A stretch of DNA of 47,647 bases, from sequence record MF158039. The stretch is one strand, 5' to 3'. Origin of the DNA: Shigella phage Sf12. The notes beneath the pieces were generated by a model. The model did not search any database. It was not told the origin of the DNA and saw nothing but the letters and a program-made list of their open reading frames with translations. The position numbers and the translations under genes were made by a program. This document shows, one piece after another, positions 297 to 46,066 of this stretch (positions are counted from its first letter, which is position 1; every line of letters begins with the position of its first letter).

Positions 297-342
297 AATA
301 GCACTTTTTGCTAATGACCATTCAGCCCTGATTGGCTATAGT
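297..342 (+). promoter_or_regulatory. Junction cassette copy: palindrome TAGCA-N5-TGCTA (299..313) then -10-like TATAGT (337..342) and conserved leader
   Basis: aatagcactttttgctaatg; 23-bp gap to TATAGT; leader acaacgaggagagaaagaATG. Confidence 0.55.
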
Positions 343-370
343 TATCACATCAACAACGAGGAGAGAAAGA

Positions 371-589
371 ATGAAAGCGATTATTATCAACAACGAAATC
401 AAGTTTGACGAAGATGCATTGACTCTGGCTGATATGGGTTATGAGATTGGTGAAGAGGTTGAAGTGTTTGAACTTGAAGGTGAGTACTTCATTGATGCAA
501 AGTGCGATGTTGTCATTGATGGCATTGTGGCTATTTACGAAAGTGAGGAGTTCACCGTTACCACAGAAGAAATCGAGGTATTAGCATGA
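371..589 (+). CDS. Hypothetical small acidic protein (ORF 332..589, start refined to ATG 371 behind conserved leader)
   Basis: ORF track; SD gaggag 8 bp upstream of ATG 371. Confidence 0.5.
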   Translation: MKAIIINNEIKFDEDALTLADMGYEIGEEVEVFELEGEYFIDAKCDVVIDGIVAIYESEEFTVTTEEIEVLA

Positions 590-825
590 AGATTCGCTGC
601 GCCAACTGTATAACTAGCACCGACAAGAAGATTGCAACGCCATTCGTAAAAGGCTCTTTATACGACGCTGAGCCGCTAATCATTAACGGCAAGACAATCC
701 CGAACGAGTGGGTGATTAATGGCGCTGAGCGTCCGCACAAGCACGATTCGGGGTGGATTGCTATCGCTGGTTGGAATGTTGGAATGTTTATACCTGGAGT
801 AGCAACTTTTGATGAGGTGAAGTAA
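586..825 (+). CDS. Hypothetical protein, 79 aa (Cys-rich N-terminus CANC)
   Basis: ORF track; ATGA start/stop overlap with previous gene. Confidence 0.45.
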   Translation: MKIRCANCITSTDKKIATPFVKGSLYDAEPLIINGKTIPNEWVINGAERPHKHDSGWIAIAGWNVGMFIPGVATFDEVK

Positions 826-978
826 ATGCTTAAACCATCTGACTTGAACTATTACGATCTAGAAACCATAGCCAAGTACAGCGGAAAGGGCTGGCCTGTT
901 GGTGACTACTTTAAGGAAGACCTTATAGAGAGCTTCGATATTGTTCAGAAAGCAATTGCAAAAGCGGCGAAGAAATAG
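826..978 (+). CDS. Hypothetical small protein, about 50 aa
   Basis: TAAATG coupling to previous gene; stop TAG is embedded in the next junction palindrome. Confidence 0.3.
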   Translation: MLKPSDLNYYDLETIAKYSGKGWPVGDYFKEDLIESFDIVQKAIAKAAKK

Positions 979-1018
979 CATTAATTGTTAAAGCCCTTCG
1001 GGGCTTATCATGTATATT
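975..1018 (+). promoter_or_regulatory. Junction cassette copy: palindrome TAGCA-N5-TGTTA (976..990), GC hairpin aagcccttcggggctt (991..1006) in spacer, -10-like TATATT (1013..1018)
   Basis: Read directly; leader aaacgagaggatttaaccATG. Confidence 0.5.
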
Positions 1019-1047
1019 CAATTAAAAGCAAACGAGAGGATTTAACC

Positions 1048-1401
1048 ATGGCTACTACACTGACTAAGAATTGGGTTAACGCTGAAAACAAACTATTTAA
1101 AGCTCGCGTTAAAGATGAGGTTGAGCAAATTAAGGTCGATGGCAAGTGGGTTAATCTCGAAATTAACGGTCATTACATTAAGACAAAGACACTACTTTGC
1201 ACCAAGGTTGACCACAGCAATCCACTCAAGAAATCATTTACTGAAGGAAAGCGTTATCAGATTTCTATGCATGCTGGATTAGGTCGTAATGCTGGCTACA
1301 TTTATGACAATGAAGGTGATGGCTGGCAACTTACTCGCGATGATGAGGTTGGCTATGATGTTGGTTATGGCATGTATAAATTTGAAGCTCAGTATAAGTA
1401 A
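1048..1401 (+). CDS. Hypothetical protein, about 117 aa (ORF 985..1401, start refined)
   Basis: ORF track; SD gagagga before ATG 1048. Confidence 0.5.
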   Translation: MATTLTKNWVNAENKLFKARVKDEVEQIKVDGKWVNLEINGHYIKTKTLLCTKVDHSNPLKKSFTEGKRYQISMHAGLGRNAGYIYDNEGDGWQLTRDDEVGYDVGYGMYKFEAQYK

Positions 1402-1446
1402 ATAGCACTTTTTGTTAATGACACTACCCGCTTCGGCGGGTATATT
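1400..1446 (+). promoter_or_regulatory. Junction cassette copy: palindrome TAGCA-N5-TGTTA (1403..1417), -35-like ATGACA, hairpin cccgcttcggcggg (1427..1440), -10 TATATT (1441..1446)
   Basis: ATGACA-17 bp-TATATT fits sigma70 spacing; leader ccatcgataacaacgagagagaataagATG. Confidence 0.6.
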
Positions 1447-1478
1447 TATAGCCATCGATAACAACGAGAGAGAATAAG

Positions 1479-3062
1479 ATGTTTGATTTTAACGAAGATA
1501 AGTTATCAGTAGAACAGGTAATGTCTGTAGCTGCAGCTGAGAATCTGCCACCTTTACGAGTTGCTATTAATGCAAATGGCTATCGCCAGAGCGCTTCATT
1601 CTGGAAAGCTCCTGTTGAGATTGATTCAACTGGTGATAAATATCCGGTCATTTCACTTGGAAATGATTGTGATGTCGTTGGTAAGTTATCAAGCAATATC
1701 GCACGCTCAGTTCAGTTCCCTGAGTCATCTGCTTATATGCATTTTCTTGGCTGCATATCAGCAGCAATGCTTGGTCGCTTCACTGTTGAATACCATGGAA
1801 CTCAGCAGCCTACATCCCTGTACGTCGTGACCAGTCAGCCACCATCAACTGGTAAATCTGCTATTAACTCATTATCAATCGCGCCAATGATTGCAGAGAC
1901 TGAACGACTGAATGAATTACGCAAGCGCGACCGTAAGAAGATTATGGCCAAATTGTCAGCGCTAGCCAAAGAGATGAAGCAGGAGAAGTCACCATCAGAG
2001 ATGGCTGGATTATTCGAAGAGAAAGAGGAACTGGAGGAGAAGTTAGAAAAGCTGTGTGACATTGTTTTTCCGGTGTCCGATACCACGCCTGAAGGCCTTG
2101 CTCGAATCAACAGTCGACAGGGTAACTTTTCAGTAATCTCCGATGAAGCAACTAGCGTGAACTCACTGTTAGGCATGACATATGGTGACGGCTCAAAGAA
2201 AACTAACAGCGAGCTGGTACTTAAAGCATGGGATGCTGGCAACGTATCTATCGCGCGTGCGAATGCAGAGAACAACATGAGCTTCATTGCCATGGGTTGT
2301 ATCTCGGTAATTGCGCAGGATGAAACAATCGTGGCCATCATGAATGCCGGCGCGCGTGGTATCGGTGTATCCGAACGTTTCTTGCTTGTGCGTGAAAAAT
2401 CATTCCTTGGTGAGCGTGTGTTCGTCGATGATGATGGCGAGTCAACATATGAACCAATTGATGGAGCTCTGAAGGCTGATTACTTCCGTCTGGTACATGA
2501 AATTATGAATGAGCAAGATGTTAAGCTGACTGTCAGCAATTCGGCAATGAAGCATCTCAATCGCGCGCGGCAGGAAATGGAGCCTCACCTTGCAGATGGC
2601 GGCAAATATTCACATACAATGCTGCGCGGCGCTTTGGGTAAAATGGATAAGCAGGTAATTCGACTTGCAGCAGTTCTTCACACTATCCGTAACTGGTTTA
2701 ACCCTAACGGCGGTAGTCCGCAGAAATCCAGAGAGATTGAACTGGAAACGATGCAGGAGGCTTTATTAATGTTTGAAGAGCTTAGTAAGACTTACTTGTC
2801 TTCCGCTAATGCTGCTGGTCACGCAGGTGATAATGCAGAGATGAATAAGCTAATTGATATCCTGATTAAGCAAGGCAAGAACAGCAAAGGAGTTGTAGGG
2901 TTGCGCTCACTTTATGAGGCTGCGCGTAAGGTTCGACCTTTTGAGGCTCAGACTGGCGTAATGGCTAAGATTAAAGACCATTTACTGCCGATGCTTGATG
3001 AGAAAAACTACACCTGCCTGATTGGTGATAAGGTTTACATTAATCCACGACTGCTGGGGTAA
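1479..3062 (+). CDS. P-loop NTPase-containing protein, 527 aa; N- and C-terminal segments are paralogous to 46060..46605
   Basis: Walker A-like QPPSTGKS; N-term MFDFNEDKL..NLPPLRVAINANGY and C-term KGVVGLRS..CLIGDKVYINPRLL shared with short paralog. Confidence 0.6.
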   Translation: MFDFNEDKLSVEQVMSVAAAENLPPLRVAINANGYRQSASFWKAPVEIDSTGDKYPVISLGNDCDVVGKLSSNIARSVQFPESSAYMHFLGCISAAMLGRFTVEYHGTQQPTSLYVVTSQPPSTGKSAINSLSIAPMIAETERLNELRKRDRKKIMAKLSALAKEMKQEKSPSEMAGLFEEKEELEEKLEKLCDIVFPVSDTTPEGLARINSRQGNFSVISDEATSVNSLLGMTYGDGSKKTNSELVLKAWDAGNVSIARANAENNMSFIAMGCISVIAQDETIVAIMNAGARGIGVSERFLLVREKSFLGERVFVDDDGESTYEPIDGALKADYFRLVHEIMNEQDVKLTVSNSAMKHLNRARQEMEPHLADGGKYSHTMLRGALGKMDKQVIRLAAVLHTIRNWFNPNGGSPQKSREIELETMQEALLMFEELSKTYLSSANAAGHAGDNAEMNKLIDILIKQGKNSKGVVGLRSLYEAARKVRPFEAQTGVMAKIKDHLLPMLDEKNYTCLIGDKVYINPRLLG

Positions 3063-4798: not shown

Positions 4799-4987
4799 TC
4801 AACGGTTTACGCAAATAAGCGTTTTTACATTAATCGGGAAGCAGTTGCCACCCACGGTCTTAATCATTACAAAAGTACAGCTAGGGTAATACTCAAGGAT
4901 TGTAGACTTAACTTTCTGCGGTGGGCAATTTGAGAACAAAACTTCATCACCCACCTTAACCATATCAGCTTTAATTGTTTGCAGCAT
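4799..4987 (-). CDS. Hypothetical protein, 62 aa
   Basis: ORF track. Confidence 0.35.
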   Translation of the reverse strand: MLQTIKADMVKVGDEVLFSNCPPQKVKSTILEYYPSCTFVMIKTVGGNCFPINVKTLICVNR

Positions 4988-5172
4988 TAACGCTCCCCAA
5001 GTGCCGAAAGGATTGCATAAGCGATTTCACGTGCATTCTTAGCGGTAAGGTTAATGGTGTCGACTTTTACATCTTCTTCGCTAGATCCATAAGCCTGCGC
5101 AATCTTAAATGTCTTACCAAAGCCAACATCTTTAACTTCGATTTGTGCATCTGATTGTGTGAACTTAGCCAT
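4987..5172 (-). CDS. Hypothetical protein, about 61 aa (ORF 4987..5238, start refined to ATG 5172 behind conserved leader)
   Basis: Leader ccatcgaaacaaacgagaggataaaaagATG. Confidence 0.45.
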   Translation of the reverse strand: MAKFTQSDAQIEVKDVGFGKTFKIAQAYGSSEEDVKVDTINLTAKNAREIAYAILSALGER

Positions 5173-5204
5173 CTTTTTATCCTCTCGTTTGTTTCGATGG
5201 AGTA

Positions 5205-5250
5205 AATATACGCCATCTTTTGATTTCTGTTTTAGCAATTCGTGCTATTT
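5205..5250 (-). promoter_or_regulatory. Junction cassette copy: palindrome (5233..5247) and -10-like TATATT (complement of 5205..5210)
   Basis: ttagcaattcgtgctattt; stop codon of HNH gene lies in the palindrome. Confidence 0.55.
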
Positions 5251-6955: not shown

Positions 6956-7159
6956 TCATTGAGCAATTGACCAGTCAAGGTATTCCTTGTCAACTAGGTC
7001 TATCGATATAACATCACCAGTATCATCCTCTATGTATACTATGTAGTCGAAGTCGCTATCAACCTTCTTTACATCATAAACCTTGCCAATTGTCAGGAAA
7101 GTTAAGAAGAAGTCGTGAAGGCTTGTACCAAAAGTTACGTCGTTTAATTTTACTTTCAT
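6956..7159 (-). CDS. Hypothetical protein, 67 aa
   Basis: ORF track; junction cassette upstream. Confidence 0.4.
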   Translation of the reverse strand: MKVKLNDVTFGTSLHDFFLTFLTIGKVYDVKKVDSDFDYIVYIEDDTGDVISIDLVDKEYLDWSIAQ

Positions 7160-7194
7160 TGTTTTACTCTCTTATATCTCGTTTCGATGAACAC

Positions 7195-7240
7195 ACTATA
7201 CGCCATCCATGGCGATGTGTTTTAACAAAAAGTGCTATTT
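7195..7240 (-). promoter_or_regulatory. Junction cassette copy: palindrome-like TAGCA-N5-TGTTA (7223..7237), -10-like TATAGT (complement of 7195..7200)
   Basis: 22-bp gap; leader catcgaaacgagatataagagagtaaaacaATG. Confidence 0.5.
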
Positions 7241-8370: not shown

Positions 8371-8571
8371 TCAAACCTCAATTAAAAAAGATACGTGATT
8401 ACCATTTTCATCAACACAACCATAGTAGCCATCACCTTCATTTGATAGCTGCCAGATATACCCAGCGTTTGATTTTATGCACGCGAAGTTTTCAAACTTT
8501 GCGATAACTTCATAATCTTCCAATAAGGTGAAGTGGCTTGTCTTATCTTTAACACAGATTGCAGTTTTCAT
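8371..8571 (-). CDS. Hypothetical protein, 66 aa
   Basis: ORF track; junction cassette upstream. Confidence 0.4.
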   Translation of the reverse strand: MKTAICVKDKTSHFTLLEDYEVIAKFENFACIKSNAGYIWQLSNEGDGYYGCVDENGNHVSFLIEV

Positions 8572-8610
8572 TATTATTTCCTTTGTTGATTACTTCGTTT
8601 CGATGAAGTG

Positions 8611-8656
8611 ATAATACAACATCCTTGGTTTTCGTCTTTAGCAATTCGTGCTATTT
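8611..8656 (-). promoter_or_regulatory. Junction cassette copy: palindrome (8639..8653), -10-like TATTAT (complement of 8611..8616)
   Basis: tttagcaattcgtgctattt; palindrome encodes the C-terminal NSTNC and stop of the upstream gene. Confidence 0.55.
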
Positions 8657-9051: not shown

Positions 9052-9550
9052 GGTACCCGATTTCTTTTTCTAAAGACTTCCTGGCTAACACTGCTGACTT
9101 CAAATCCACAAAGTAACCTATGTGCTTCTCCTTGCCGTTTATGTTTATGTAAGCTCTGAATTTCTGCTCTCTCTTGTTCCAGCTAACACCTGTAACCCCT
9201 GAAGTGTTGTCATTCCTTTTGCTTTGATTTTTTAAATTATCCTGCTTAGATACTAACCTTAGATTTTCAATCCTATTGTCATCTCTTATGTGGTTTATAT
9301 GGTCTATCTCCATTCCTTTAGGGATTTTGCCATTATAAATCTCCCATATTATCCTATGTGCAAGAAATGGTTTTTTATTTAAAATTATCTGAATGTATCC
9401 GATGTTTTTGGTTCCAGCCTCTTTGCCTGCATAGTTTCCATTCCATTGGGGCCTAACATCACCCCTCCATTTCCAAAACAACTTAAAATCATCACTTAAT
9501 GAAAAATAATCCAACCAATCAAAATTGCTTATTACTAATGACATCTTCAC
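9020..9550 (-). CDS. HNH homing endonuclease
   Basis: EIDHINHIRDDNRIENLRLV motif; overlaps both neighbours. Confidence 0.8.
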   Translation of the reverse strand: MKMSLVISNFDWLDYFSLSDDFKLFWKWRGDVRPQWNGNYAGKEAGTKNIGYIQIILNKKPFLAHRIIWEIYNGKIPKGMEIDHINHIRDDNRIENLRLVSKQDNLKNQSKRNDNTSGVTGVSWNKREQKFRAYININGKEKHIGYFVDLKSAVLARKSLEKEIGYHENHGAENER

Positions 9551-11462
9551 CCTTCCCGTTTTTACGATGAGTTAGTTTAGTTGGCGCTTTAATGAGATGC
9601 TTCATTTCAAGGATCTTTCTTGCGTTACGGCATGCTAACAAGAATCTACGCTCATTGTTTACCAAAACGTGCGGTAGTATAGCCTTTTGCTGATAAATTG
9701 TTCTAGCTATCTTGTGCGTTGATTCTGGGAAGAACACCTCACGAGCCTTGAACCTTTCGCCTGAATCATCAATCAGCGTGTAAGTGTAAATCAATCCTGA
9801 TTGGTTCTTTGTCAATCCAACATCAAATTCAACAACATCGTAGTAGTCATTTTTTGTATAGTGACGACCCGTTAGCTTCAGGTTTGGGTCTATAAGTGTA
9901 CAATCACAACCTCTACATATTTTTGCAGCAACATCATTCTGTACTCCACATCCCTTAACCAATACTTTTCCGGTTCTTGTGTCCTTTTGATCATCGCATG
10001 TACGGCTTACCCAGAAGTAAGAGCATCTCTCACCACTCTCATCAACATGCATGCAGCGTCGAGCAAAGAAGCTGTTCTCTGTTCCGCATACTGGACACTG
10101 CTTAGTCTCCTTGCCATTACTCTTTCGTAGCTGATATTGAGCCTGCTCAAGAATTGGATTGAAGTACAATGATGCCATGGAGTCCATCGTTCCTGCGAAG
10201 TCCAGAACAAGGTGATCATTCTTAATCATCCCCTTATCTTCATGGAGCTTCTTAAGCTTACGCATTCCGCGACCAAGTAGCTGAACCAGGAGTGTAAGGC
10301 TGCCAATCTTACGCAATATAACGCTAGTATCCCAAGTTGGAACGTTAACGCCGGTGGTGAGAGCCTGAACCTGGAAGCAATATTTAATCTCTCCAGTGAA
10401 GCACTTATCCAGCAACTCCTTGCGCTGCTTCTCTCCTGTTTTTCCAGTAATTATACAGTAAGTCTCACCTTCAGGTAGGTAGCTTGCAGCCTCCTTGCAG
10501 TGTCGCTCTCCCGCGCAAGTTACAAGAACTCCATTCCGATCTTTTGCTGCCAACCACACCTTCTTCATAATCTCAGCTGTCATTGTGCCTGACTGCTGAA
10601 TCTTCTTCTCCATTGCCTCTAGCTGAGATTTCGTGAAGTCCTGAACACCATCATCTGCTGAAGTGTCAAACTCAGAGAGATCATAGCCAACACCATAAGT
10701 AGACCCAAAATTCGTAGGAACAACAGAGCCAAACTCAACCAGATAGTTGGTATCAATATTAGTCGCCGTTTCACGCCAGAACCCAAGCTCCTTAAGGTTC
10801 TCCACAACAATTGGTGTTGTTCCGCGGAAAGGAGAGCCAGTCAGGCCAAATATCCTAAGTTCACGCCCATACTTAGCGCGGCAGCGTTCCATTAAAGTAA
10901 GGATGATAACGGTGTATTGGCTGCGCCCTCTATCTGACGCCTGCTGCGCAGTTTCGTTGTTATCAATTGCCTCTGCGATATCCTGATCATCAATATGGTG
11001 GCACTCATCAATAGCAACTACCGCAGGGAAAAAATCGCCAAGTGACTTCTTAAGCCCACCAACTACCGTACCCTCAGAACCAACAACTACAGGAAAGTAG
11101 GATGATTTAATACCCAAACCTGAACAATATATAGAGTTAGGCACTCCATAATCAGAGATCTCAGAAGCATTCTGGCTAACGAGTTCAGCCTGGCGAGCAA
11201 GGAGAAGCATAGGTAAGCCAAGCTCAGAACAACGTTTAGCTACCATAGCAAATACAAGAGTCTTACCAGCCGACACTGAAGCCATTGCGATGAAAGGGTG
11301 TTTGTATTTGCCAATACGCTTAGCAATCTCATCATACATTACACACTGGTAGCTGTATGGAATCATGCCATTGGATGATGTAAATTTTTCCTGAATCTCT
11401 TTAATCTTATTTTCGCCTAGTTCTTCAATCTGTTTTTGTATTGATTTCAATCGCATAGTCAT
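9519..11462 (-). CDS. SF2 DExH-type DNA helicase with C-terminal zinc-finger-like region
   Basis: Walker A SAGKT, Walker B DECHH, CPVCG ... RRC. Confidence 0.75.
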   Translation of the reverse strand: MTMRLKSIQKQIEELGENKIKEIQEKFTSSNGMIPYSYQCVMYDEIAKRIGKYKHPFIAMASVSAGKTLVFAMVAKRCSELGLPMLLLARQAELVSQNASEISDYGVPNSIYCSGLGIKSSYFPVVVGSEGTVVGGLKKSLGDFFPAVVAIDECHHIDDQDIAEAIDNNETAQQASDRGRSQYTVIILTLMERCRAKYGRELRIFGLTGSPFRGTTPIVVENLKELGFWRETATNIDTNYLVEFGSVVPTNFGSTYGVGYDLSEFDTSADDGVQDFTKSQLEAMEKKIQQSGTMTAEIMKKVWLAAKDRNGVLVTCAGERHCKEAASYLPEGETYCIITGKTGEKQRKELLDKCFTGEIKYCFQVQALTTGVNVPTWDTSVILRKIGSLTLLVQLLGRGMRKLKKLHEDKGMIKNDHLVLDFAGTMDSMASLYFNPILEQAQYQLRKSNGKETKQCPVCGTENSFFARRCMHVDESGERCSYFWVSRTCDDQKDTRTGKVLVKGCGVQNDVAAKICRGCDCTLIDPNLKLTGRHYTKNDYYDVVEFDVGLTKNQSGLIYTYTLIDDSGERFKAREVFFPESTHKIARTIYQQKAILPHVLVNNERRFLLACRNARKILEMKHLIKAPTKLTHRKNGKGEDVISNKQF

Positions 11463-11499
11463 GTTCTCAAATGCCTTTCATGTTCGTTCGATTGACGTT

Positions 11500-11542
11500 A
11501 TAATAACAGCCATCAAAACCAATGTTTAACAAAAAGTGCTAT
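11500..11542 (-). promoter_or_regulatory. Junction cassette copy upstream of the helicase: palindrome-like TAGCA-N5-TGTTA (11527..11541), -10-like TATTAT (complement of 11500..11505)
   Basis: 21-bp gap; leader caatcgaacgaacatgaaagg. Confidence 0.5.
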
Positions 11543-11546
11543 CGAG

Positions 11547-12029
11547 GTGATAAAAGTGACTGAAATTGATAAGCGTACTCTTAACGGTAATAATGGAACC
11601 ATCCGAACAGAAGATAAGAAACCACGTAAACGGCCTTCAGGTTACTATGTGTTAAAGGATGAAGTAAAGGCTGGGCTGAGGGCAAGACTTGAGATTGTTT
11701 TAGACTTCTACGGCAGCAAGGCGAATATGGCGAAGCAATTAAAGGTTACTCGCCAGGCTGTTGAGGAATGGTTTAATCGCGGCATGATGTCGGCACGTGG
11801 CGCCCAGCTTGCTCACAATCGATACAAGCGAACTGGCGAAGGCTTCCGCGCTACATTTTGTCGACCAGACTTGCAGTTTGACGGTAACGGCAAGCCGCTA
11901 ACTCTGCGTTGCAAAAAGCGCCACATGCTACGCGTGGTCACTGATGCAGAATTAGCCACCAAGCCCGAGTGTCGCTCGTGGCGCAAAATTAAAGCAGCTA
12001 ATGAAGCAGCACGAAAAGCTAAAGAGTAA
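11547..12029 (+). CDS. HTH DNA-binding protein, candidate regulator
   Basis: HTH-like KANMAKQLKVTRQAVEEWFNRG; GTG start; divergent from helicase. Confidence 0.5.
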   Translation: MIKVTEIDKRTLNGNNGTIRTEDKKPRKRPSGYYVLKDEVKAGLRARLEIVLDFYGSKANMAKQLKVTRQAVEEWFNRGMMSARGAQLAHNRYKRTGEGFRATFCRPDLQFDGNGKPLTLRCKKRHMLRVVTDAELATKPECRSWRKIKAANEAARKAKE

Positions 12030-12036
12030 CAATTAA

Positions 12037-12067
12037 GGTTGTGCCATAATCGGTGCAACCTTTTTTA
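12037..12067 (+). terminator. Rho-independent terminator
   Basis: ggttgtgccataatcggtgcaacc followed by tttttt. Confidence 0.6.
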
Positions 12068-12081: not shown

Positions 12082-13005
12082 ATGAACTACGACAAGAAAG
12101 AAGTAATGGCAAGAATGAAAGGATTATGGCCGGATGCTTTAGTTAAGTTATGCGGCGTCAATCCTTCAGTATTTAAAACTAAACGCCATCAACCTTGCAT
12201 ATACTGTGGCGGCACTGACAGGTGGCGCTGGACTGACAAGGTTAGTGAGCATGGGGATGGCGGGGCAATTTGCAACCAATGCGGGGCTGGCGACGGCATA
12301 ATTTGGATACAGAAACTACGAGGGGAGTCTTTTAGCGAGGCGGTAAATACTGTTGGTGAGTGGCTAAACCTGGTTCCAGTTGAGGTGATCAACAAGGCTA
12401 ACAAGTCAGCAAGCAGAGTTCAGCGGTACAAAAATGGCGCTCAATCATCTCCTGATAGGATTAATTTGGTAATGAGTAAAACTGAGCTCGTATATGATAG
12501 TCCAATACTTAGATTTGAGGGCTTGCACACATATGATGGAATGAGAGTTGGCAGAAATGATATTGGAGAGGTAATTCACGCTGAGCCTTGCTTTATGGTG
12601 TATGAGGACGGTTTATCAGATGAGCCTTGTAATGTAAAGTTTATCAATGAAGAGGGTGATGAATCATATCTTGCAAAAGATTATACTCGTGGCTCAGTTA
12701 TTCCGGTCAGTGAATGTAGTGATGGGGCAATCTATCTTACGGTGGGTTGGGTTAACGCATTACACGTATCGGCATGCACAAAAAGGACGACATACGACTG
12801 CCTCACTCATCACAACTTAGAGATGGTGGCTTATGAACTTAGAGGTAAGGAGTGCAGAATAGCTTGTCTTGCTGATGATAAAGAGTCGCTTTATGTTGCT
12901 GACGATAGGGGGCTGAAGGTGGTGATTCCAAATGGTGGAAACTTCAAAATGGGGCTTGAGCGAAAGCTATATAGCCCACAAGATCTGATAGATAAGCATT
13001 CATAA
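12082..13005 (+). CDS. DNA primase (P4-type zinc-ribbon N-terminus, Toprim-like C-terminus)
   Basis: HQPCIYCGGTDRWRW ... GAICNQCGAGDGI zinc-ribbon; LYVADDRG. Confidence 0.7.
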   Translation: MNYDKKEVMARMKGLWPDALVKLCGVNPSVFKTKRHQPCIYCGGTDRWRWTDKVSEHGDGGAICNQCGAGDGIIWIQKLRGESFSEAVNTVGEWLNLVPVEVINKANKSASRVQRYKNGAQSSPDRINLVMSKTELVYDSPILRFEGLHTYDGMRVGRNDIGEVIHAEPCFMVYEDGLSDEPCNVKFINEEGDESYLAKDYTRGSVIPVSECSDGAIYLTVGWVNALHVSACTKRTTYDCLTHHNLEMVAYELRGKECRIACLADDKESLYVADDRGLKVVIPNGGNFKMGLERKLYSPQDLIDKHS

Positions 13006-14887: not shown

Positions 14888-15538
14888 TTAGAACTGCTCT
14901 ATTGATTGTGATTCTACAGCTTCACTCGGTGCATTTGCAACAACTTTAGTTACTTCTTTTGGTTTTGCTGGGTTAAAGCCACTTGCAGAAGCCATCTTAA
15001 TCTCTGCTTGCTTTTCGATAATCGCCTTCTCTACGATACACCACGTTGCGGCATCAGCTTGTGATTTACAAGCCTTGTAAACCTCTACAAGTTCATCGCG
15101 AGTCTCTGCTTTCTCTACTTCGCGCTTCCAGTCTTTGACGCTCTTGACTGCAAGATTGCCGTCATCATCAGCCTGACTAAGACCGAGAGCTGCCGTAATA
15201 GCGTATCGCCTAGCATAAGTTAATGATGAGCCAGTTCCCTGACAATCATTTTTAGCTAACGGTACAATTGTCAGGAAAGAAACCCATTCAGCAGACTCAG
15301 CATGATAAATCTTAGTCTCAACCTTAATCTGATTCGAGACTTCTGACTCAAGCATACTCTGGAACATTACCAGTCCACTATCTTCAAGCCCTGGCTCTAC
15401 AGCCGCTAGAACGTCATCAAGTGTTGCGTATTTGTTTTTAAGGTGCGAGTTCTGCTTGGACTTTTCAGCCTTGGCAAACTTGCTCTTAGCTTCAAATAGA
15501 GCCTTTAAAACGTTTGTGTTTTTGTCGCTGGTATTCAT
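14888..15538 (-). CDS. Erf-like single-strand annealing recombinase (ORF 14888..15577, start refined to ATG 15538)
   Basis: Adjacent to exonuclease and SSB; leader catcgacaacgagaggaaaagtATG; family call from overall similarity memory. Confidence 0.5.
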   Translation of the reverse strand: MNTSDKNTNVLKALFEAKSKFAKAEKSKQNSHLKNKYATLDDVLAAVEPGLEDSGLVMFQSMLESEVSNQIKVETKIYHAESAEWVSFLTIVPLAKNDCQGTGSSLTYARRYAITAALGLSQADDDGNLAVKSVKDWKREVEKAETRDELVEVYKACKSQADAATWCIVEKAIIEKQAEIKMASASGFNPAKPKEVTKVVANAPSEAVESQSIEQF

Positions 15539-15565
15539 ACTTTTCCTCTCGTTGTCGATGAGGTA

Positions 15566-15608
15566 ACTATACCTCACCGATTTAATGTTGTTTTAGCTAT
15601 TAGTGCTG
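15566..15608 (-). promoter_or_regulatory. Junction cassette copy (degenerate palindrome 15594..15608, -10-like TATAGT complement of 15566..15571)
   Basis: 22-bp gap; conserved leader. Confidence 0.45.
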
Positions 15609-16570
15609 TTTTCGTATTTTGACATGTAGTATGAAGGAACCTGTAGCTCCATAGAGTCCTCAATCATGTTGTAGCCAGGCCAGCGGTCGTACTTCTTGCA
15701 CTGCTTGTATGTCGCCAGGGCTTCCATGTATTGACGCCGACCTAAGGCAATATGTGCATCTGATAGCGTGTAGCACATTGGTAAGTAGGGAGCCTTTTTT
15801 TCTTGAGCTAAAAGCCGAACTAAAACTTTACGTTTTTCGTTGAAAGCACGAACAAACAAATCTCTTTGCAAAGCCATTTTTAGCAGGTAACCATAATTGG
15901 CAGCTAGCCTACCAAACCCTTCAGGAGATGCGTCTGATGTCGTTTTAAAATCTGTAATTATGACCGTATCACCAACAACATCAACGTGGTCCAGCCTAAC
16001 CTTAACTCCGCACTCATTAATCTCTCCGAAGATTGATAGTTCCCTCTGAGCGGTTTCGCTGTTAACTATAGCGTTGTAAGCGGGAATGCCACACAACACC
16101 TCTCGCATCGCTTGTACGGTGTCAAAGTCCTTAGCTGATACAATCTCGCGGCCTTCGGCTTTAATCTCGCTAGATCGCTGGATATCCCACCATACGTTGA
16201 GTGATTCACCAGTCAGCGTCAGCATCTCCATCAATTCAGGGTAATCCTTGCCAGAAGTTCCCGTGATTCCCATCGCCTTAAGTCTTGCGGCTAATGCAGT
16301 CTTGCTTGTGATAAGGTCTTCAAACTCTTCCTGTGCTGGCTGTCGGTAATAAGTAGAATCGAATATGTCACTTTCCAAAATCATTGTATGTGCTGCGCTA
16401 CCAAATGAAAGCGCCCTGCTTTTCTCACTCTCCTGAAATCTAAATGCAGCAGGGCATGTTGAAAATATCTTAGCAAGACCGCTACCCGATACGTGATCAA
16501 CTTCTGAATGATAAGCATCATTTGTTAGCTCATCTCTCGTAAAGACCTTGAATTTCATTTTTCCCACCAT
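15593..16570 (-). CDS. PD-(D/E)XK recombination exonuclease (YqaJ/RecE-like)
   Basis: LDHVDVVGDTVIITDFKT D...D-x-K core; recombination-module context. Confidence 0.6.
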   Translation of the reverse strand: MVGKMKFKVFTRDELTNDAYHSEVDHVSGSGLAKIFSTCPAAFRFQESEKSRALSFGSAAHTMILESDIFDSTYYRQPAQEEFEDLITSKTALAARLKAMGITGTSGKDYPELMEMLTLTGESLNVWWDIQRSSEIKAEGREIVSAKDFDTVQAMREVLCGIPAYNAIVNSETAQRELSIFGEINECGVKVRLDHVDVVGDTVIITDFKTTSDASPEGFGRLAANYGYLLKMALQRDLFVRAFNEKRKVLVRLLAQEKKAPYLPMCYTLSDAHIALGRRQYMEALATYKQCKKYDRWPGYNMIEDSMELQVPSYYMSKYENSTNS

Positions 16571-17949: not shown

Positions 17950-18348
17950 TTAGTTGTATTGTTTAATGTTTTTTGATTCTTCAATTGCTTCGCAAGTCTC
18001 AATGAATCGATATGAGTCCTCAATGACTCCAATCATAGAGGTCTGTTCTTCAAGATAAACGTCGATAACAGTTATAGTGAAATCGTCAGCATTGATCTTA
18101 GCCAATTCAATCAAGCTATTAACTAGATTATTGGATTGCTCAAACTCACCCTTAACACTCTTTACAGTCGCAAGAACAAATCTGTAGCTTTCATCGTTGA
18201 AGTCTAGTGATTTTATGTATTCACTTGTCTTCGTCATTGATTCAATTCGGCTATTTTTCATCATGTAGCTTTTTGCTTTCTCTGTGTTCATTGTTTTATA
18301 TCTCATTTTTAGCAGCACCATTGCTGCCGATGAGTGCACTATACCCAA
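17950..18348 (-). CDS. Hypothetical protein (probable start at internal Met, about 113 aa)
   Basis: ORF track. Confidence 0.4.
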   Translation of the reverse strand: MGIVHSSAAMVLLKMRYKTMNTEKAKSYMMKNSRIESMTKTSEYIKSLDFNDESYRFVLATVKSVKGEFEQSNNLVNSLIELAKINADDFTITVIDVYLEEQTSMIGVIEDSYRFIETCEAIEESKNIKQYN

Positions 18349-18736
18349 TCAGTATGTATCCGTTTTGATTATTCGTGCTATTTTGTATATCGGTGTAAAC
18401 CTCACCTAAATACGTTTTGATGCTCCGTGCGCCGCATGGATGCTGAGTGTAACTCTTGTAACCAATGTATCCACCAATTTTGCACCCTATCTATATCTAT
18501 ATGCATTTCCTCCTTAACAGGAAATCAAACATAGTCTTTTAGAAAAACATACCAACATAGCAATAGAGAGTAGTTACACTATATACAAACAAATATAGTA
18601 ATAATAATAATTACTCTAAACCCTTATTATATAAGGATTTTATAGTGTAACTAATGCGTATCTGTGCGTAAAAAGCGTATACAATTTTCTGCGGATGAGA
18701 TTGTATACATCGAGTTACATCGGTTACGCGTATATC
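18349..18736. other. AT-rich non-coding control region between divergent operons; candidate origin/regulatory hub
   Basis: tatctatatctatatgcat, (TAA)n at 18598..18613, inverted repeat gtatacaat-N14-attgtatac (18670..18702). Confidence 0.5.
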
Positions 18737-18783
18737 AAATAGCACGATTTGCTAAAGACTCCCGCATCAGCCTTTGCTATAGT
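18737..18783 (+). promoter_or_regulatory. Junction cassette copy: palindrome (18740..18754), -10-like TATAGT (18778..18783)
   Basis: aaatagcacgatttgctaaag; 23-bp gap; leader ccatcgaaacgaaac. Confidence 0.55.
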
Positions 18784-18823
18784 TACTCCATCGAAACGAA
18801 ACATACTCACTAAGGAATACAAA

Positions 18824-18928
18824 ATGACTAACTTCGCAACCAACGTAATGGCCTTCACCTTCGGCGTAGCAACTACTGGTTTCTTCGTGTGGGTACTGCT
18901 GCTGGCTTCAAAATTTAACGGTTTCTAA
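18824..18928 (+). CDS. Small hydrophobic membrane peptide, 34 aa
   Basis: MTNFATNVMAFTFGVATTGFFVWVLLLASKFNGF; tightly coupled to lipoprotein gene. Confidence 0.45.
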   Translation: MTNFATNVMAFTFGVATTGFFVWVLLLASKFNGF

Positions 18929-18938
18929 GGTGAATAAG

Positions 18939-25971: not shown

Positions 25972-25992
25972 TTTTAATCTCCAGTTTAATAG

Positions 25993-26040
25993 ATTATAGG
26001 ATAGCGCATTTCTGCGCTACCCAATTAACAAAAAGTGCTT
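25993..26040 (-). promoter_or_regulatory. Variant junction cassette upstream of the HNH gene: palindrome-like (26026..26040), hairpin, consensus -10 TATAAT
   Basis: ttaacaaaaagtgctt; tagcgcatttctgcgcta hairpin; TATAAT complement of 25993..25998. Confidence 0.4.
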
Positions 26041-26860: not shown

Positions 26861-27055
26861 TCAATCTTCACTAGTAATAACCTTTGATGCATTTTTTGAG
26901 TAGTGAGAAATCTCATCAAAAGACAATTCAACCCACTCATCCAAGCCAATCTCATAGTAAAGAGGTTTATCTCCAGAGTTATCAATTGTTACAGAGAATG
27001 GCTTTCCATTGTGGAAGTGAACCAGTACGAATTGTGATTTAGGGAAGTTTTTCAT
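26861..27055 (-). CDS. Moron: hypothetical 64-aa protein inserted between tail genes M and L
   Basis: Own junction-cassette promoter upstream and own terminator downstream. Confidence 0.5.
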   Translation of the reverse strand: MKNFPKSQFVLVHFHNGKPFSVTIDNSGDKPLYYEIGLDEWVELSFDEISHYSKNASKVITSED

Positions 27056-27103
27056 TTCATTATCCTCGTTTGTTTGTTTTGGTCATTTCGTTTCGATGAA
27101 GTG

Positions 27104-27150
27104 ATAATACACCACTTCACCGATTCGTCTTTAGCAATTCGTGCTATTTA
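27104..27150 (-). promoter_or_regulatory. Junction cassette copy driving the moron: palindrome (27132..27146), -10-like TATTAT (complement of 27104..27109)
   Basis: tttagcaattcgtgctattta; 22-bp gap; leader catcgaaacgaaatgaccaaaacaaacaaacgaggataATG. Confidence 0.55.
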
Positions 27151-30937: not shown

Positions 30938-30980
30938 TTAAATAATCCTCTCGTGTTTGTTTGAGTTGAAATTATAACAT

Positions 30981-33295: not shown

Positions 33296-33541
33296 TTATT
33301 TGTAGTCGCCGCCGTTCTCAGCTTCGTCAATGTTCTTTGCTTGTTTCTTGGTCTTAGCTTTCGCTTTAACTTCCTGCTCGATTTCTTTCGTTGCCTTATG
33401 GTCATCCTCAATCTCAAGCTTACCTTCAGCCACCAGAATCTTTAAGCCAACTGATAACTCTTCAACCTCAATGCAGTCACCTGGCAGATAATCTTTAGCT
33501 CCAAGACGGATAACACAAGCACCTTTATGTAACAGTTTCAT
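33296..33541 (-). CDS. Hypothetical head-module protein, about 81 aa (ORF 33296..33598, start refined)
   Basis: Consensus -10 TATAAT and conserved leader caatcgaaacaaaggaggaaagaATG upstream. Confidence 0.45.
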   Translation of the reverse strand: MKLLHKGACVIRLGAKDYLPGDCIEVEELSVGLKILVAEGKLEIEDDHKATKEIEQEVKAKAKTKKQAKNIDEAENGGDYK

Positions 33542-33568
33542 TCTTTCCTCCTTTGTTTCGATTGTTTG

Positions 33569-33633
33569 ATTATATAGCCATATAAACAAAAATACCACCC
33601 CGAAGGGTGGTAGGTGATCAGCAATAATTGCTA
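33569..33633 (-). promoter_or_regulatory. Composite junction: palindrome (33619..33633) right after the capsid-gene stop, terminator hairpin (33596..33611), then -10 TATAAT (complement of 33569..33574)
   Basis: gcgTAA-TAGCAATTATTGCTG; ccacccttcggggtgg plus T-run. Confidence 0.55.
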
Positions 33634-34620
33634 TTACGCGAAGGTGATACCCTTCATGACTGCCATCGTTAAAGGCCTATACACGATCAAACCAGTTGCC
33701 TTGGAGGTTACTGGTACGCGGAAATGTAAATCCTTCGGCTGAGCCGGTAGTGCGTTAGTAGCTTCCGGAATCTCGATGGCCATGTTGTTCGGGTCTTTCT
33801 CATAAGCGATAGCTGCAGAGGTGCCAGTGCCATTGTAATCATTCAGGTACTGAACGAACTCAACAGTTACGCCGCTGTTGTTCTGGCGGAAGAATTCACC
33901 ATAGCTAACAGAGGTGCCAGGAACCAGGTTCTGCATGATACGACGAGCGGTAGTAGGCAGAAGAAGGTGCGTAGCGCGGTGCTGACCATTAGTTGAAGTC
34001 TCGATAATATCCAGAAGGCTTGTAATGTCGCTTACCGCTGTGGTAGGTTGAGCCCATGAGCCACCGCTAACAACGTTGTTGATATTTGGGTAGTCGAACA
34101 CGCTAGGGATGCCGTGAACGGTAGAGCCGGACCATACCAGTTTATCAAGCAGCTTGTCGTGAGCTTCGAAAGCCAAGGACTGCTTGCGAGCAGACAGTGA
34201 CTGACCAGTAGCCTGACCAACTTTAATTTCATCAATAGAAATCAGGAACGCGTTACCGAAACGGAAAACTTTACCCTGACGTTCAGTTGCTAAAGCGTCA
34301 ACCAGTGGCAGGTCATCAGTGTAGTCAGCTACGATCTGAGCAATACCAACGCCATCAAATACCGGATACTCAAAGTACTTAGCATAGCCAGGGATTTCAT
34401 TGCTTACAGGGAACAGGTTTACTACGGAGTTCTGATCGTACTCAGTCTCGTAAGCTTTATTCAGGCTTGCAGTGAGTTGCTTCACAGTCCAGATACCAGC
34501 CGCGTCGGCTTTATCAACACCCATCGCGCGCAGGTGGTTAGTAATCTTTTCTTGCTCGAAAGCGTCAAGTTTGATAGTCATATTAAGATGCATCCTTTTG
34601 TTTATGAGTTTACGTGTCAA
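33634..34620 (-). CDS. Major capsid protein (putative)
   Basis: 328 aa, followed by strong terminator; position in head module; no motif-level proof. Confidence 0.5.
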   Translation of the reverse strand: MTRKLINKRMHLNMTIKLDAFEQEKITNHLRAMGVDKADAAGIWTVKQLTASLNKAYETEYDQNSVVNLFPVSNEIPGYAKYFEYPVFDGVGIAQIVADYTDDLPLVDALATERQGKVFRFGNAFLISIDEIKVGQATGQSLSARKQSLAFEAHDKLLDKLVWSGSTVHGIPSVFDYPNINNVVSGGSWAQPTTAVSDITSLLDIIETSTNGQHRATHLLLPTTARRIMQNLVPGTSVSYGEFFRQNNSGVTVEFVQYLNDYNGTGTSAAIAYEKDPNNMAIEIPEATNALPAQPKDLHFRVPVTSKATGLIVYRPLTMAVMKGITFA

Positions 34621-44035: not shown

Positions 44036-44303
44036 TTTAAATTGCCTTATCGACTAAAGTAATACTGCACAGTCCCGCCAAGGACGGCCTGCTGAGCGTA
44101 CGCTGATTCAGAACTGTCGTGGACTCTTCTGTGCATAACGCTGTTAAACTTTCCAGTGTAGTATGTGTGAATCCAGATCATCTCTTGCTCCACATGTGAA
44201 TTGCTAGCTTACCGTCTCCAGCCTCAGAATCGTTTGCTGCCCATAAGTTGCCAGTGAATACGTAAATCTTCATTTCTTCTCCTCGTTTCGTCTTGATGTG
44301 GTA

Positions 44304-44350
44304 ATCATATCAACTACCCATTCTGGCGTATTAGCAATTAGTGCTATTTG
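44304..44350 (-). promoter_or_regulatory. Junction cassette copy: palindrome (44332..44346), -10-like TATGAT (complement of 44304..44309); no long ORF downstream
   Basis: attagcaattagtgctatttg; leader catcaagacgaaacgaggagaagaaATG precedes only a 22-codon ORF. Confidence 0.5.
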
Positions 44351-44820
44351 CCGTGATTATCATGAAATACGTATTTTAAGTTCGCTTCCTGCCTTGCCTT
44401 AATTGCCTCATTCATGTCGGAATAAGTTCCCAGGTGAATATCCTTTCCGGAGACTTTAATCTTTGCGGCCCACTTACCTGAAGCTTTGTGCCAGCCTACT
44501 CCAATGAAACCACTTAAGCTAGATGGTCTTATTGATTGGTTCCTCTGATTTCCTGCGTTTGTAACAAGCCTTAGGTTTTCAATCCTGTTATCTTTCCTAT
44601 TATGGTTTATGTGATCAATCATCATACCTTCGGGCTTTTCCCTACCATGCATGAACCAAACTATATTGTGCACAAGTGCGGTTCCGTCTATGAAATGTCA
44701 CTGCAGATAACCTTTAGAATCAGGACTTCCAGTAACTCGTCCATTTGACAATCTGGTTATCGTTCCATCTTTATTATAGCTAAAGTGGCATTTTATATAC
44801 TCTTTATTTCTCACTACCAT
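44344..44820 (-). pseudogene. HNH homing endonuclease interrupted by an in-frame TGA (complement of 44698..44700)
   Basis: Hand translation MVVRNKEY...SKGYLQ*HFIDGTALVHNIVWFMHG...IDHINHNRKDNRIENLRLV aligns across the stop with intact paralogs. Confidence 0.6.
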
Positions 44821-44953
44821 CTACCTCCCTAGACCCCCACATATTCATCAGCTCAAAGTAAGCCATTGCCTCATCGCCGTCCTTTGCCTCATCCATCATC
44901 TTCTTACACCAGTCAGAAGGATTCATTTCCTTCTTCTTCATAATCAGGTCCAT
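44804..44953 (-). CDS. Hypothetical small acidic protein (ORF 44804..44998, start refined)
   Basis: Conserved leader tatcgaaacgagaggagacaaggcagtgATG. Confidence 0.4.
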   Translation of the reverse strand: MDLIMKKKEMNPSDWCKKMMDEAKDGDEAMAYFELMNMWGSREVDGSEK

Positions 44954-44986
44954 CACTGCCTTGTCTCCTCTCGTTTCGATAAAGTA

Positions 44987-45033
44987 ATAGTATCGCATCC
45001 TTGCGATTGATGTTTAGCAATTCGTGCTATTTA
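44987..45033 (-). promoter_or_regulatory. Junction cassette copy: palindrome (45015..45029), -10-like TACTAT
   Basis: tgtttagcaattcgtgctattta; palindrome encodes C-terminal NSTNC of the upstream gene. Confidence 0.5.
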
Positions 45034-45277
45034 TCTTCTTATGACCGTAAAGTTCCTTAGCTTTCTGAAGTGACTCAATTGAGTCATCAATGTCGGTTAG
45101 GTAGTCTTTGTGCCCACGAAGCCCTGTACACAGCATTTTCTTGATTGCGTGCTGAGTTGCCGGGTCAGTTACCTTGAAAGCATCCAGAACACGATATACA
45201 TCGATTGCCGTTACTGTGCCATCCAGGCCGATAATCTCACGGTTGTACTTACTCATAATCATCGCCCTCATTAACAA
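45014..45277 (-). CDS. Hypothetical protein (C-terminus KINSTNC encoded by the junction palindrome)
   Basis: ORF track. Confidence 0.4.
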   Translation of the reverse strand: MLMRAMIMSKYNREIIGLDGTVTAIDVYRVLDAFKVTDPATQHAIKKMLCTGLRGHKDYLTDIDDSIESLQKAKELYGHKKINSTNC

Positions 45278-45657
45278 TAATCACGCCATGGTTGTCGCCA
45301 TCACAAACCGTTAGATTGCCAAACCTCTCGTAAAACTCAATGCATTCGCCGACTGGAGTGTATTGGTACTGGTCATTAACATTGTTGTTCATATCTCAAT
45401 CCTCGTTATTGTGCCGCCATGCGTCTTCTGCATTAACATGGCGTATCTCTCGTCTACATAATGCAGGAGCATATCGATGCCCCTGCTACTGAATCTGTGT
45501 TCGTAGATGGTCATTGGTCTAATGCGATAATATCAACAAAGCCACCAATTGAATTTGCATATTCACTGGCCTTATCTTCATCAATAAAGCATTTAATTGC
45601 GTGATTGTCTTTTTTTACAATGAATAAATAACCAACAATATTAATCATTCTTAATCC

Positions 45658-45894
45658 TCACTTATATTGACTAGCCAGCTGGCAACCTGATAGCGCCGTG
45701 CAAATCTGCTCGTATCGACTCCATGCGGTATCGGCATCCCATGGGAGTTCATTTTCGTCGAACTCTTGGTTGCGAATCTGATTTAAAACCTCCGCGATGA
45801 CGCCTGAATCCTGGAACATTCCTTTTGAGTCGAAGTACTGAAGTGCTACTTTCAGTGCAAATGCGTGCTCTTCTGACAGGTTAATAGTAATCAT
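45658..45894 (-). CDS. Hypothetical protein, 78 aa
   Basis: ORF track; ATGA coupling to a 30-codon ORF upstream. Confidence 0.4.
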
Positions 45895-46019
45895 TTTCCA
45901 AGTACCCCTTTGGTTTTTAGGTTTTTGCGGTAGAATTGCATAATGTGCTGATTGTAATAATTACTTGATGGATACTCTTTCATCTTTTTACCCTCTCCTC
46001 CCGTTTGGTTGATAGGGTA

Positions 46020-46066
46020 ATCATAGCTGACTACCCGATTTATTGTTTAGCAATTCGTGCTATTTA
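46020..46066 (-). promoter_or_regulatory. Junction cassette copy: palindrome (46048..46062), -10-like TATGAT (complement of 46020..46025)
   Basis: ttgtttagcaattcgtgctattta; 22-bp gap. Confidence 0.55.

Follow-up and report, generated by a model that had tools for sequence, protein, structure and literature searches.

What is the short element that recurs at gene boundaries throughout the genome of Shigella phage Sf12, and what reads it? The stretch of DNA that we analysed, 47,647 nucleotides long (sequence record MF158039) and called the window in what follows, had been the subject of an earlier note made from the sequence alone. That note listed 15 copies of a palindrome, TAGCA-N5-TGCTA, and regarded them as symmetric sites for a dimeric regulator of a set of promoters. 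Our analysis also points to promoters, with a different kind of site in them: a putative marbox, the sequence read by the host activators MarA, SoxS and Rob.

By megablast the phage is a T1-like siphovirus of the Drexlerviridae, Rogunavirus-like. Shigella phage Sd1 was 90% identical across 83% of a 24-kb late-region query, and Rogue1, JK06 and phiKP26 were 84-88% identical to the window. The genomes of the nearest relatives are 43-48 kb long and the window is 47.6 kb.

The element had been thought undescribed, which proved mistaken: a 2024 paper on phage TLS describes it as a 21-nt direct repeat, aaATAGCACnnnTTGnTAAAA, and leaves its function open (PMC11447400). TLS has 18 intergenic copies, which follow the direction of transcription and fall into A, T and G sub-groups by their middle triplet; "similar repeats" in T1, Rtp and Rogue1 were mentioned as unpublished observations, and stoperators, enhancer sites and UP elements were suggested as functions (PMC11447400). 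In the Rogue1 and AHP24 papers the promoter search was limited to TTGACA-N15-17-TATAAT. The element of the window is that of TLS, with the same consensus, A/T/G sub-groups and orientation with transcription. Its median distance to the start codon is about 75 nt (a 20-bp box, an 18-bp spacer, a 6-bp hexamer and 31 nt), compared with about 76 nt in TLS (PMC11447400). The fixed -10, the start-site signal and the marbox identity described below are unreported in the TLS paper, and TLS belongs to another subfamily than the present phage, which is Rogunavirinae-like.

The repeated cassette

Exact copies of TAGCA-N5-TGCTA numbered 8 in the window where 0.07 were expected, and 14 matches carried at most one mismatch (2.1 expected). 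Twelve of the 15 listed coordinates were among the latter; the copies at 15594 (two mismatches) and 26026 are more degenerate. Taken in the direction of the downstream gene, the orientation given in the earlier note, all 15 copies aligned as a single cassette, 13 of them canonical and two (26026 and 33619) degenerate. Three further degenerate copies were found at 12006-12025 (+), 18362-18381 (-) and 24140-24154 (-). The cassette consists, in order, of a 20-bp box, ATAGCAC-NNN-TTGYTAAAnn (more fully A-T-A-G-C-A-C-(T/G)(T/A)(T/A)-T-T-G-(C/T)-T-A-A-A-n-n), a variable spacer of 18-19 bp, a TAnnnT hexamer, a C-A step 7 nt further on, TCGAAAC, a Shine-Dalgarno sequence and the start codon; the leader begins AUCGAAAC.

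The cassettes are also joined to the genes that precede them. Nine of the 15 boxes contain the stop codon of the upstream gene, a feature that had been reported for several copies, and the palindrome-encoded C-terminus NSTNC* was recovered at 8639 and 45015, together with NSTNS* at 15594. Supplying stop codons to the upstream gene is a secondary property of the box.

A motif search in related phages returned the same consensus in the window, TLS, T1, Rtp, KP36 and Rogue1. In the last five, drawn from different subfamilies or genera, the box is unchanged and each genome has 19-24 copies. Pooling these six T1-like genomes gave 102 boxes, picked by a score threshold, which is a caveat for the symmetry and uniformity statistics below; counts at the level of the whole cassette (-35, +1 and hairpins) use the 92 cassettes of this T1-like set. 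In a scan of viral contigs, those with multiple copies of the box were 33-53 kb long, nearly all of them 42-53 kb. Erwinia phage phiEt88 and Vibrio phage 12E28.1, which came from a capsid search and share the capsid gene alone, served as negative controls.

Among the 102 boxes the middle triplet TTT occurred mostly with T14 (32 T, 14 C) and GAA with C14 (30 C, 1 T). These linked sub-types may be two copy lineages or two affinity classes; within the window we saw no obvious tie between sub-type and gene class.

Promoter anatomy and geometry

A good -10 hexamer stood 18-19 bp past 83 of the 102 boxes (81%), compared with 2.2% of random positions in the six genomes. The spacing was 18 bp in 72 cases, 19 bp in 11 and 17 bp in 6. 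TATAGT, TATATT and TATTAT were the commonest hexamers, all fitting TAnnnT, and about a third of the cassettes (34/92) had a TG ahead of the hexamer, giving an extended -10. Seven nucleotides past the hexamer the base was A in 77 of 92 cassettes, with C or T before it. The -35 position was usually occupied by AAAACn, and in 72 of 92 cassettes only two or three of the six TTGACA positions were matched.

Within the window, 12 copies have the hexamer 22-23 bp past the palindrome (18-19 bp past the box), as had been described, and the copy at 11527 has it at 21 bp (17 bp past the box). The copy at 26026 has TATCCT at 18 bp and TATAAT at 23 bp, and at 33619 a terminator comes next, with the actual -10 about 40 nt away. 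If +1 is the conserved A 7 nt past the hexamer, the palindrome centre falls at -42/-43, matching the position near -42 that had been proposed for it, and the 15-bp marbox core is centred at -40/-41.

This anatomy, with its orientation and its fixed spacing to the -10, supports the proposal that the copies form a regulon of sigma-70-type promoters in which an activator-type site takes the class II position, and we regard it as very probable that the junction element is a promoter. Ordinary sigma-70 promoters were not enriched in the window, where canonical matches numbered 43 against 43.3 expected from shuffles and 29 against 29.2. This agrees with TLS, in which only three consensus sigma-70 promoters were found (PMC11447400). 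The best ordinary match in the late region, TTCACA-16-TATAAT with a TG at 30971-30998 (-), is boxless, lies directly past the terminator at 30986-31005 and matches the position of an extended -10 promoter annotated in Rogue1.

Class II marboxes are in forward orientation and overlap the -35 (PMC6900184), and class II sites cluster near -41, forward and without a recognisable -35 (PMC10268841). All canonical phage boxes are likewise forward relative to the promoter. RamA has its site on micF at about -41, where it reads CACN-7N-AAA and contacts sigma region 4 and an alpha C-terminal domain. Read from the K-12 sequence, the E. coli micF promoter consists of a box, 18 bp, TAGAAT, 7 nt and +1. With their predicted +1, the phage cassettes share this layout to the base pair. 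The -10 of fumC could not be placed unambiguously, and the fumC spacing was not used.

The initial transcribed sequence A-TCGAAAC(GA), about 10 nt from the predicted +1, is kept in most cassettes and across subfamilies (for example at 8595-8604 and 27088-27097). It may perhaps have a role in promoter escape, translation or RNA stability, or be a second regulator site.

Identity of the box

The symmetric site postulated for a dimeric regulator did not survive closer comparison of the copies, in which symmetry is limited to the 5-bp arms and is broken by invariant positions. Complementarity was seen in 1% of copies for C7 and T11, in 2% for A1 and A17, and in 14% for positions 0 and 18. G4 is invariant, and its mirror position 14 is C in 62 and T in 37 copies (Fisher p = 4e-13). 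Such asymmetry fits a site for a monomer, not a dimer. Judged by its sequence, the box is a near-perfect, asymmetric marbox and the apparent palindrome is incidental.

Martin is said to have given the marbox in 1999 the form AYnGCACnnWnnRYYAAAYn. With the published MarA consensus, GCAHWWWWTGYYAAA (PMC6900184), we found 15 matches at no more than one mismatch in the window (1.49 expected), 14 of which are copies listed earlier. [quoted passage not shown] Ten of its 11 best matches in the window were listed cassette boxes, and the remaining one was the site at 24140. The cassette boxes scored 15.1-17.9 bits, compared with a median of 9.9 and a maximum of 17.3 for genuine chromosomal sites. At a score of at least 14.1 bits the window had 13 matches, against 0.69 in shuffles. 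Strong matches numbered 15-22 in the T1-like genomes, 1-3 in 50-kb segments of E. coli and 0-2 in the two unrelated phages. In the opposite direction, we searched 290 kb of E. coli K-12, on both strands, with a matrix derived from the phage boxes, and its top match was the marbox of the mar promoter. Within its own 50-kb locus the micF marbox came second; the box near acrAB ranked 9th and that near fumC 26th.

The cassettes have in common with class II promoters of the mar-sox-rob regulon, such as micF, an asymmetric box of 15-20 bp in forward orientation, 18 bp to the -10, a centre near -41, a weak or absent -35 and a sigma-70 -10. They differ from that regulon in that the sites stand in a virulent genome and are about ten times as dense there as on the chromosome, with 15-24 copies per 47-50 kb, and in that the boxes are nearer the marbox consensus than any of the 52 ChIP-seq sites used. 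The cassettes also add a conserved transcribed leader and nested hairpins, and for them binding by MarA, SoxS or Rob is a prediction.

The -24/-12 elements of sigma-54 promoters are TGGCAC-N5-TTGC. A sigma-54 promoter was considered and rejected: TAGCAC-N3-TTGC is 2 bp too short and has AG for GG, and there is a sigma-70 -10 at fixed spacing.

Candidate readers of the box

The window contains no MarA-like open reading frame (ORF) detectable by tblastn (best E about 1) or by a profile hidden Markov model in six frames (best E 2.7); of the queries (MarA, SoxS and Rob), that for MarA agreed with the K-12 translation. As no phage-encoded activator was found, we infer that the host supplies it, and we lean towards MarA, SoxS or Rob of the host as the protein that reads the box. 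Rob would likely be the default activator, since it is made by unstressed cells; MarA and SoxS would supplement it under antibiotic or oxidative stress.

MarA, SoxS and Rob are monomeric AraC-family activators, each with a pair of helix-turn-helix (HTH) motifs. In the mechanism that we propose, an activator of this family (in Klebsiella also RamA) would bind the box, one HTH motif reading GCAC and the other the YTAAA end. The bound activator would then touch sigma-70 region 4 and an alpha C-terminal domain, recruiting RNA polymerase in place of a -35 contact. Transcription would start at the conserved A 7 nt past the hexamer, and the mRNAs would share the 5' end AUCGAAAC about 24 nt ahead of the start codon. 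Each cassette would in this way be a promoter that depends on sigma-70 and on a class II activator. Our literature search returned no publication tying marboxes to T1-like phages and no transcription start-site mapping for a Drexlerviridae phage.

The middle promoters of T4 have a MotA box centred at -30, about 12 bp from the -10, that is read by the phage protein MotA with sigma appropriation by AsiA. They resemble the cassettes in being a phage-wide sigma-70 set with a conserved activator box in place of the -35. The box described here differs in lying near -41 and in matching a host activator site, and no homologue of MotA or AsiA turned up, although no search was aimed at them.

Several points weigh against a host activator. 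The box is more uniform than natural marboxes, and A3 is invariant at a position where the marbox consensus tolerates any base. This uniformity could point to a more selective reader, to recent common ancestry of the copies or to bias from the score threshold. Some boxes have no usable -10, for example those at 33615 and 24140 and those at 8362 and 34902 in T1. MarA and SoxS are scarce in unstressed cells. Rob is mostly aggregated and inactive in standard conditions (PMC10268841); in Salmonella, dipyridyl releases aggregated Rob, and Rob binds tighter than MarA or SoxS (PMC10268841). Reported activation is modest for the MarA family, about 2-fold for RamA, which seems a weak basis for a virulent phage. 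Finally, every box-bearing phage keeps a Cro-like regulator whose gene abuts a box.

This last protein, the product of the HTH regulator gene at 11547..12029 (+), is the candidate reader that the earlier note had named. It belongs to the T1 gp23 family (phrog_2856), is P22-Cro-like with a single HTH motif and is the sole regulator annotated in the window. In this alternative, which we consider unlikely, the protein would be made first from an ordinary sigma-70 promoter, bind TAGCA-N5-TGCTA as a dimer, activate about 15 box promoters from a class II site and repress itself through the reversed box in its 5' untranslated region. Its gene is a core gene restricted to the Drexlerviridae (823 records) and co-occurs with the box; because of this distribution, occurrence cannot separate the two candidates. 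The gene starts 6 bp from the box at 11523-11542, on the opposite strand, and by inspection a TATAAT on the regulator strand overlaps the -10 of the helicase gene in all six phages, a layout typical of autoregulation. It is this autoregulatory-looking arrangement next to a box that keeps the Cro-like protein a live rival. The 5-bp arms, 10 bp apart centre to centre, would also suit a Cro-like dimer (P22 Cro match). Set against this are the strong asymmetry of the box at invariant positions, which is not that of a dimer operator, and the fact that its sequence, orientation and spacing agree with those of the marbox to the base pair, which for an unrelated protein would be a remarkable coincidence. 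In addition, the recognition-helix residues differ among phages with the same boxes (TRQAVEE, SNQTVQG, NLKTVWG, SIQVVQQ), and the promoters of the small-gene arms, presumed early from their position only, are boxed as well, so the factor would be needed before being made.

About 85 bp of intergenic DNA separate the divergent regulator and helicase genes (11463-11546 in the window; the same arrangement occurs in Rogue1, T1, KP36, TLS and Rtp). From its layout this region looks like a switch between mutually exclusive promoters.

The box might also act without any factor, being read by RNA polymerase itself, for example as a UP-like element for the alpha C-terminal domains that boosts promoters with a weak -35. 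UP elements are A/T-rich tracts that the alpha C-terminal domain reads at -40 to -60. The box, at -32 to -51, overlaps this zone and is A-rich at its flanks, with AA upstream and AAAA at the 3' end, and a UP element was among the options raised for TLS (PMC11447400). We hold this to be very unlikely: the core GCAC...TTG, with its invariant G4, C5, C7 and G13, is not A/T-rich and is unlike the UP consensus, and the exact marbox match would be left unexplained.

It is, in our estimate, highly unlikely that the boxes serve mainly as boundaries for recombination or mobility, that is, as short homology for module swaps or as landing sites for homing endonucleases, with a promoter role in second place. 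As a secondary property the idea gained some support. In blastn comparisons, the ends of homology blocks fell in cassettes at 13 of 46 ends for Rogue1 (1.7 expected) and 8 of 40 for Rtp (1.5 expected), counts made without a cassette-free junction control; with homology blocks ending in them, the cassettes mark mosaic boundaries between related phages. HNH endonuclease genes in the window, Rtp, T1, TLS and Rogue1 each have a cassette ahead. As the main function it fared poorly: homology has no need of a strict 18-19 bp spacing to the -10, an invariant orientation or a conserved +1, block ends are expected at any intergenic junction, and recombination is compatible with promoters as a side effect.

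Extremely unlikely is a repressor or roadblock, stoperator-like, whose bound protein would halt readthrough or silence downstream genes, a function suggested for TLS (PMC11447400) and favoured by a reversed box just upstream of the major head gene in T1, TLS and KP36, since the canonical copies take the activator position, upstream of the -10, rather than covering the core promoter or following it, and these virulent phages have no lysogenic silencing to maintain.

Reversed boxes at the major head gene were found at 15067-15086 (-) in T1, 15023 (-) in TLS and 15363 (-) in KP36, and T1 has another at 18831 (-). The arrangement at the major head gene is absent from the window and from Rogue1. 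The T1 copy falls within the spacer of a promoter close to the sigma-70 consensus, TTGACG-N16-TATTAT, and a protein bound at that point would be expected to act as a repressor.

Individual copies in the window

Returning to the cassettes as class II-type promoters, we describe the copies in genome order. The first three are on the plus strand. Cassette 1 (298..373) has its box at 298-317 (ATAGCACTTTTTGCTAATGA), the -10 TATAGT at 337-342, the predicted +1 A at 349 and the start codon at 371. In cassette 2 (975..1050) the box at 975-994 holds the TAG stop of the upstream gene and is followed by a GC-rich spacer hairpin, AAGCCC-ttcg-GGGCTT (995-1010, +), the -10 TATATT at 1013-1018, the predicted +1 A at 1025 and the start codon at 1048. 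Cassette 3 (1402..1481; box 1402-1421, -10 TATATT 1441-1446) would drive the DNA helicase gene 1479..3062; a terminator hairpin at 1425-1442 (+) is nested in its spacer, with the -10 TATATT serving as T-tract.

Cassettes 4 to 8 are on the minus strand. Cassette 4 (5170..5248) has its box at 5229-5248, where TAG is the upstream stop, the -10 TATATT at 5205-5210 and the predicted +1 A at 5198, and precedes gene 4987..5172. Cassette 5 (7157..7238; box 7219-7238, -10 TATAGT 7195-7200, predicted +1 A 7188) has a spacer hairpin CGCCA/TGGCG and precedes gene 6956..7159. The box of cassette 6 (8569..8654), at 8635-8654, encodes the upstream C-terminus NSTNC*; the -10 TATTAT lies at 8611-8616, the predicted +1 A at 8604 and the gene at 8371..8571. 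Cassette 7 (11460..11542) has its box at 11523-11542, the -10 TATTAT at 11500-11505 (spacing 17) and the predicted +1 A at 11493; the ATP-dependent helicase gene 9519..11462 lies downstream and the HTH regulator gene stands back to back on the other strand. In cassette 8 (15536..15609) the slightly degenerate box at 15590-15609 (ACAGCACTAATAGCTAAAAC) encodes the upstream NSTNS*, the -10 TATAGT is at 15566-15571 and the predicted +1 A at 15559, ahead of the Erf-like recombinase gene 14888..15538.

Cassette 9 (18739..18826, +) has its box at 18739-18758, the -10 TATAGT at 18778-18783, the predicted +1 A at 18790 and the start codon at 18824. Homology to Rogue1 stops at 18835, just past this start codon. 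At 18824-19187 the genes differ from the lipoprotein and membrane protein pair of Rogue1, with short ORFs of 34 and 76 codons, and this may be a swapped or disrupted exclusion module.

The remaining cassettes are again on the minus strand. Cassette 10 (25969..26041) is degenerate, with its box at 26022-26041 (TAAGCACTTTTTGTTAATTG) and a hairpin in the spacer; TATCCT comes 18 bp past the box, and TATAAT (25993-25998) 23 bp past it. The ORF downstream of it (25675..25971, -) opens with MNWNEIFEYRDG, and annotated HNH endonuclease genes of Rtp, T1 and TLS start in a similar way. Cassette-preceded HNH (homing-type) genes were seen at 25675-26041 in the window, 21393 and 6316 in Rtp, 41956 in T1, 48176 in TLS and 12048 in Rogue1.

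Cassette 11 (27053..27147; box 27128-27147) has a -10 TATTAT at 27104-27109 flanked by the 7-bp inverted repeat TGAAGTG/CACTTCA, its predicted +1 A at 27097 and gene 26861..27055 downstream. Cassette 12 (33539..33634) is atypical and lacks class II geometry: its degenerate box at 33615-33634 comes directly past the stop of the major capsid gene, an intrinsic terminator follows at 33593-33612, and a separate TATATAAT lies about 40 nt from the box, ahead of gene 33296..33541. Rogue1 has an HNH gene immediately past the post-capsid box; the window has none there.

In cassette 13 (44271..44347) the TAG of the box at 44328-44347 is the upstream stop, the -10 TATGAT is at 44304-44309 and the predicted +1 A at 44297, ahead of ORF 44178..44273. 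Cassette 14 (44954..45030) has a box at 45011-45030 that encodes the upstream NSTNC*, the spacer hairpin ATCGCA/TGCGAT (44992-45007), the -10 TACTAT at 44987-44992 and the predicted +1 A at 44980, and precedes ORF 44804..44956. Cassette 15 (45981..46063), the last, has its box at 46044-46063, with TAG as the upstream stop, the -10 TATGAT at 46020-46025, the predicted +1 A at 46013 and ORF 45891..45983.

Of the additional boxes, the degenerate one at 12006..12062 (+) has the core GCACGAAAAGCTAAA, scores 14.6 bits on the ChIP-seq matrix and lies where the HTH gene ends; next comes a terminator (12035-12062) with CATAAT in its loop, and the box stands upstream of the primase gene 12082..13005. 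This order of box, terminator and primase gene is kept in Rogue1, Rtp, T1, KP36 and TLS. The degenerate box at 18362..18381 (-), ATAGCACGAATAATCAAAAC, with only its 5' half intact, is upstream of ORF 17950..18348; its Rogue1 homologue (26871 +) has TATAGT 18 bp downstream. The box-like site at 24140-24154 (-) is a strong marbox-like 15-mer, GCACAAATGGTTAAA, of 15.8 bits on the ChIP-seq matrix. It lies about 19 nt before the probable start of the long tail fibre gene, too close to fit a -10 in between, and is kept in Rogue1 (21764).

A single tRNA-Arg (anticodon CCT) lies at 43468-43543 (-), and Rogue1 likewise has one tRNA-Arg. It was the sole match in an Rfam search of the window; the leader and the hairpins matched no family.

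Hairpins in and around the promoters

Spacer hairpins of at least 5 bp occurred in 19 of 92 cassettes (4.2 expected), often as GC-rich tetraloop stems set against the T-rich -10, and several are annotated as terminators in T1. Nested hairpins of the terminator type were found at 1425-1442, 995-1010, 33593-33612 and 44992-45007 in the window and at 41956 and 39976 in T1. With a terminator hairpin nested in its spacer, a cassette would both end one transcription unit and start the next. In T4-type phages, PeSL (promoter-early stem-loop) cassettes consist of an ordinary early sigma-70 promoter and a stem-loop after it; Arbiol et al. reportedly described them in 2010, and module swapping by short homology has been proposed for them. 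The present cassettes resemble PeSLs as repeated promoter and hairpin units at gene junctions and, it appears, at mosaic boundaries. They differ from PeSLs in having an activator box and in carrying the hairpin within the promoter, and the two have no sequence relation.

A second kind of pairing surrounds the -10. Inverted repeats flanking it, with stems of at least 6 bp, were present in 24 of 92 cassettes (about 3-4 expected). Examples are 27097-27127 (TGAAGTG..TATTAT..CACTTCA), 15559-15589, 5198-5228 and 46013-46043 in the window and 1450, 3535 and 4344 in T1. Since the arms vary in sequence from copy to copy, selection seems to act on pairing and not on sequence. In such a hairpin the -10 hexamer would lie in the loop, with no T-tract after it. 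These repeats are perhaps a signal for RNA 3' ends or processing in readthrough transcripts, or perhaps allow cruciform formation in the DNA.

Significance

The element itself was already known; its reading as a class II marbox appears to be new and bears on the function of the repeat, which has been listed as a question for T1-like phages (PMC11447400). We see an evenly balanced case for a broader proposal, that the Drexlerviridae would wire most promoters outside the structural block (for the small-gene arms, which are presumed to be early, and for DNA metabolism) to host MarA, SoxS, Rob or RamA through better-than-chromosomal marboxes. If this is so, a virulent phage family would lean on a stress activator of its host and not on a sigma factor, RNA polymerase or activator of its own. 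Phage expression would be set by the stress and antibiotic-resistance state of the host (bile salts, salicylate, oxidants, mar mutations), and multiplying phage genomes could titrate the host activators. The boxes would also form a natural set of very strong marboxes for work on the MarA activator family.

Mutations that raise mar and ramA expression are common in clinical isolates. Were phage growth tied to the mar/sox/rob antibiotic-resistance circuitry in the way proposed, this would be relevant to phage therapy against E. coli and Klebsiella and to T1-type contamination of laboratories and fermenters.

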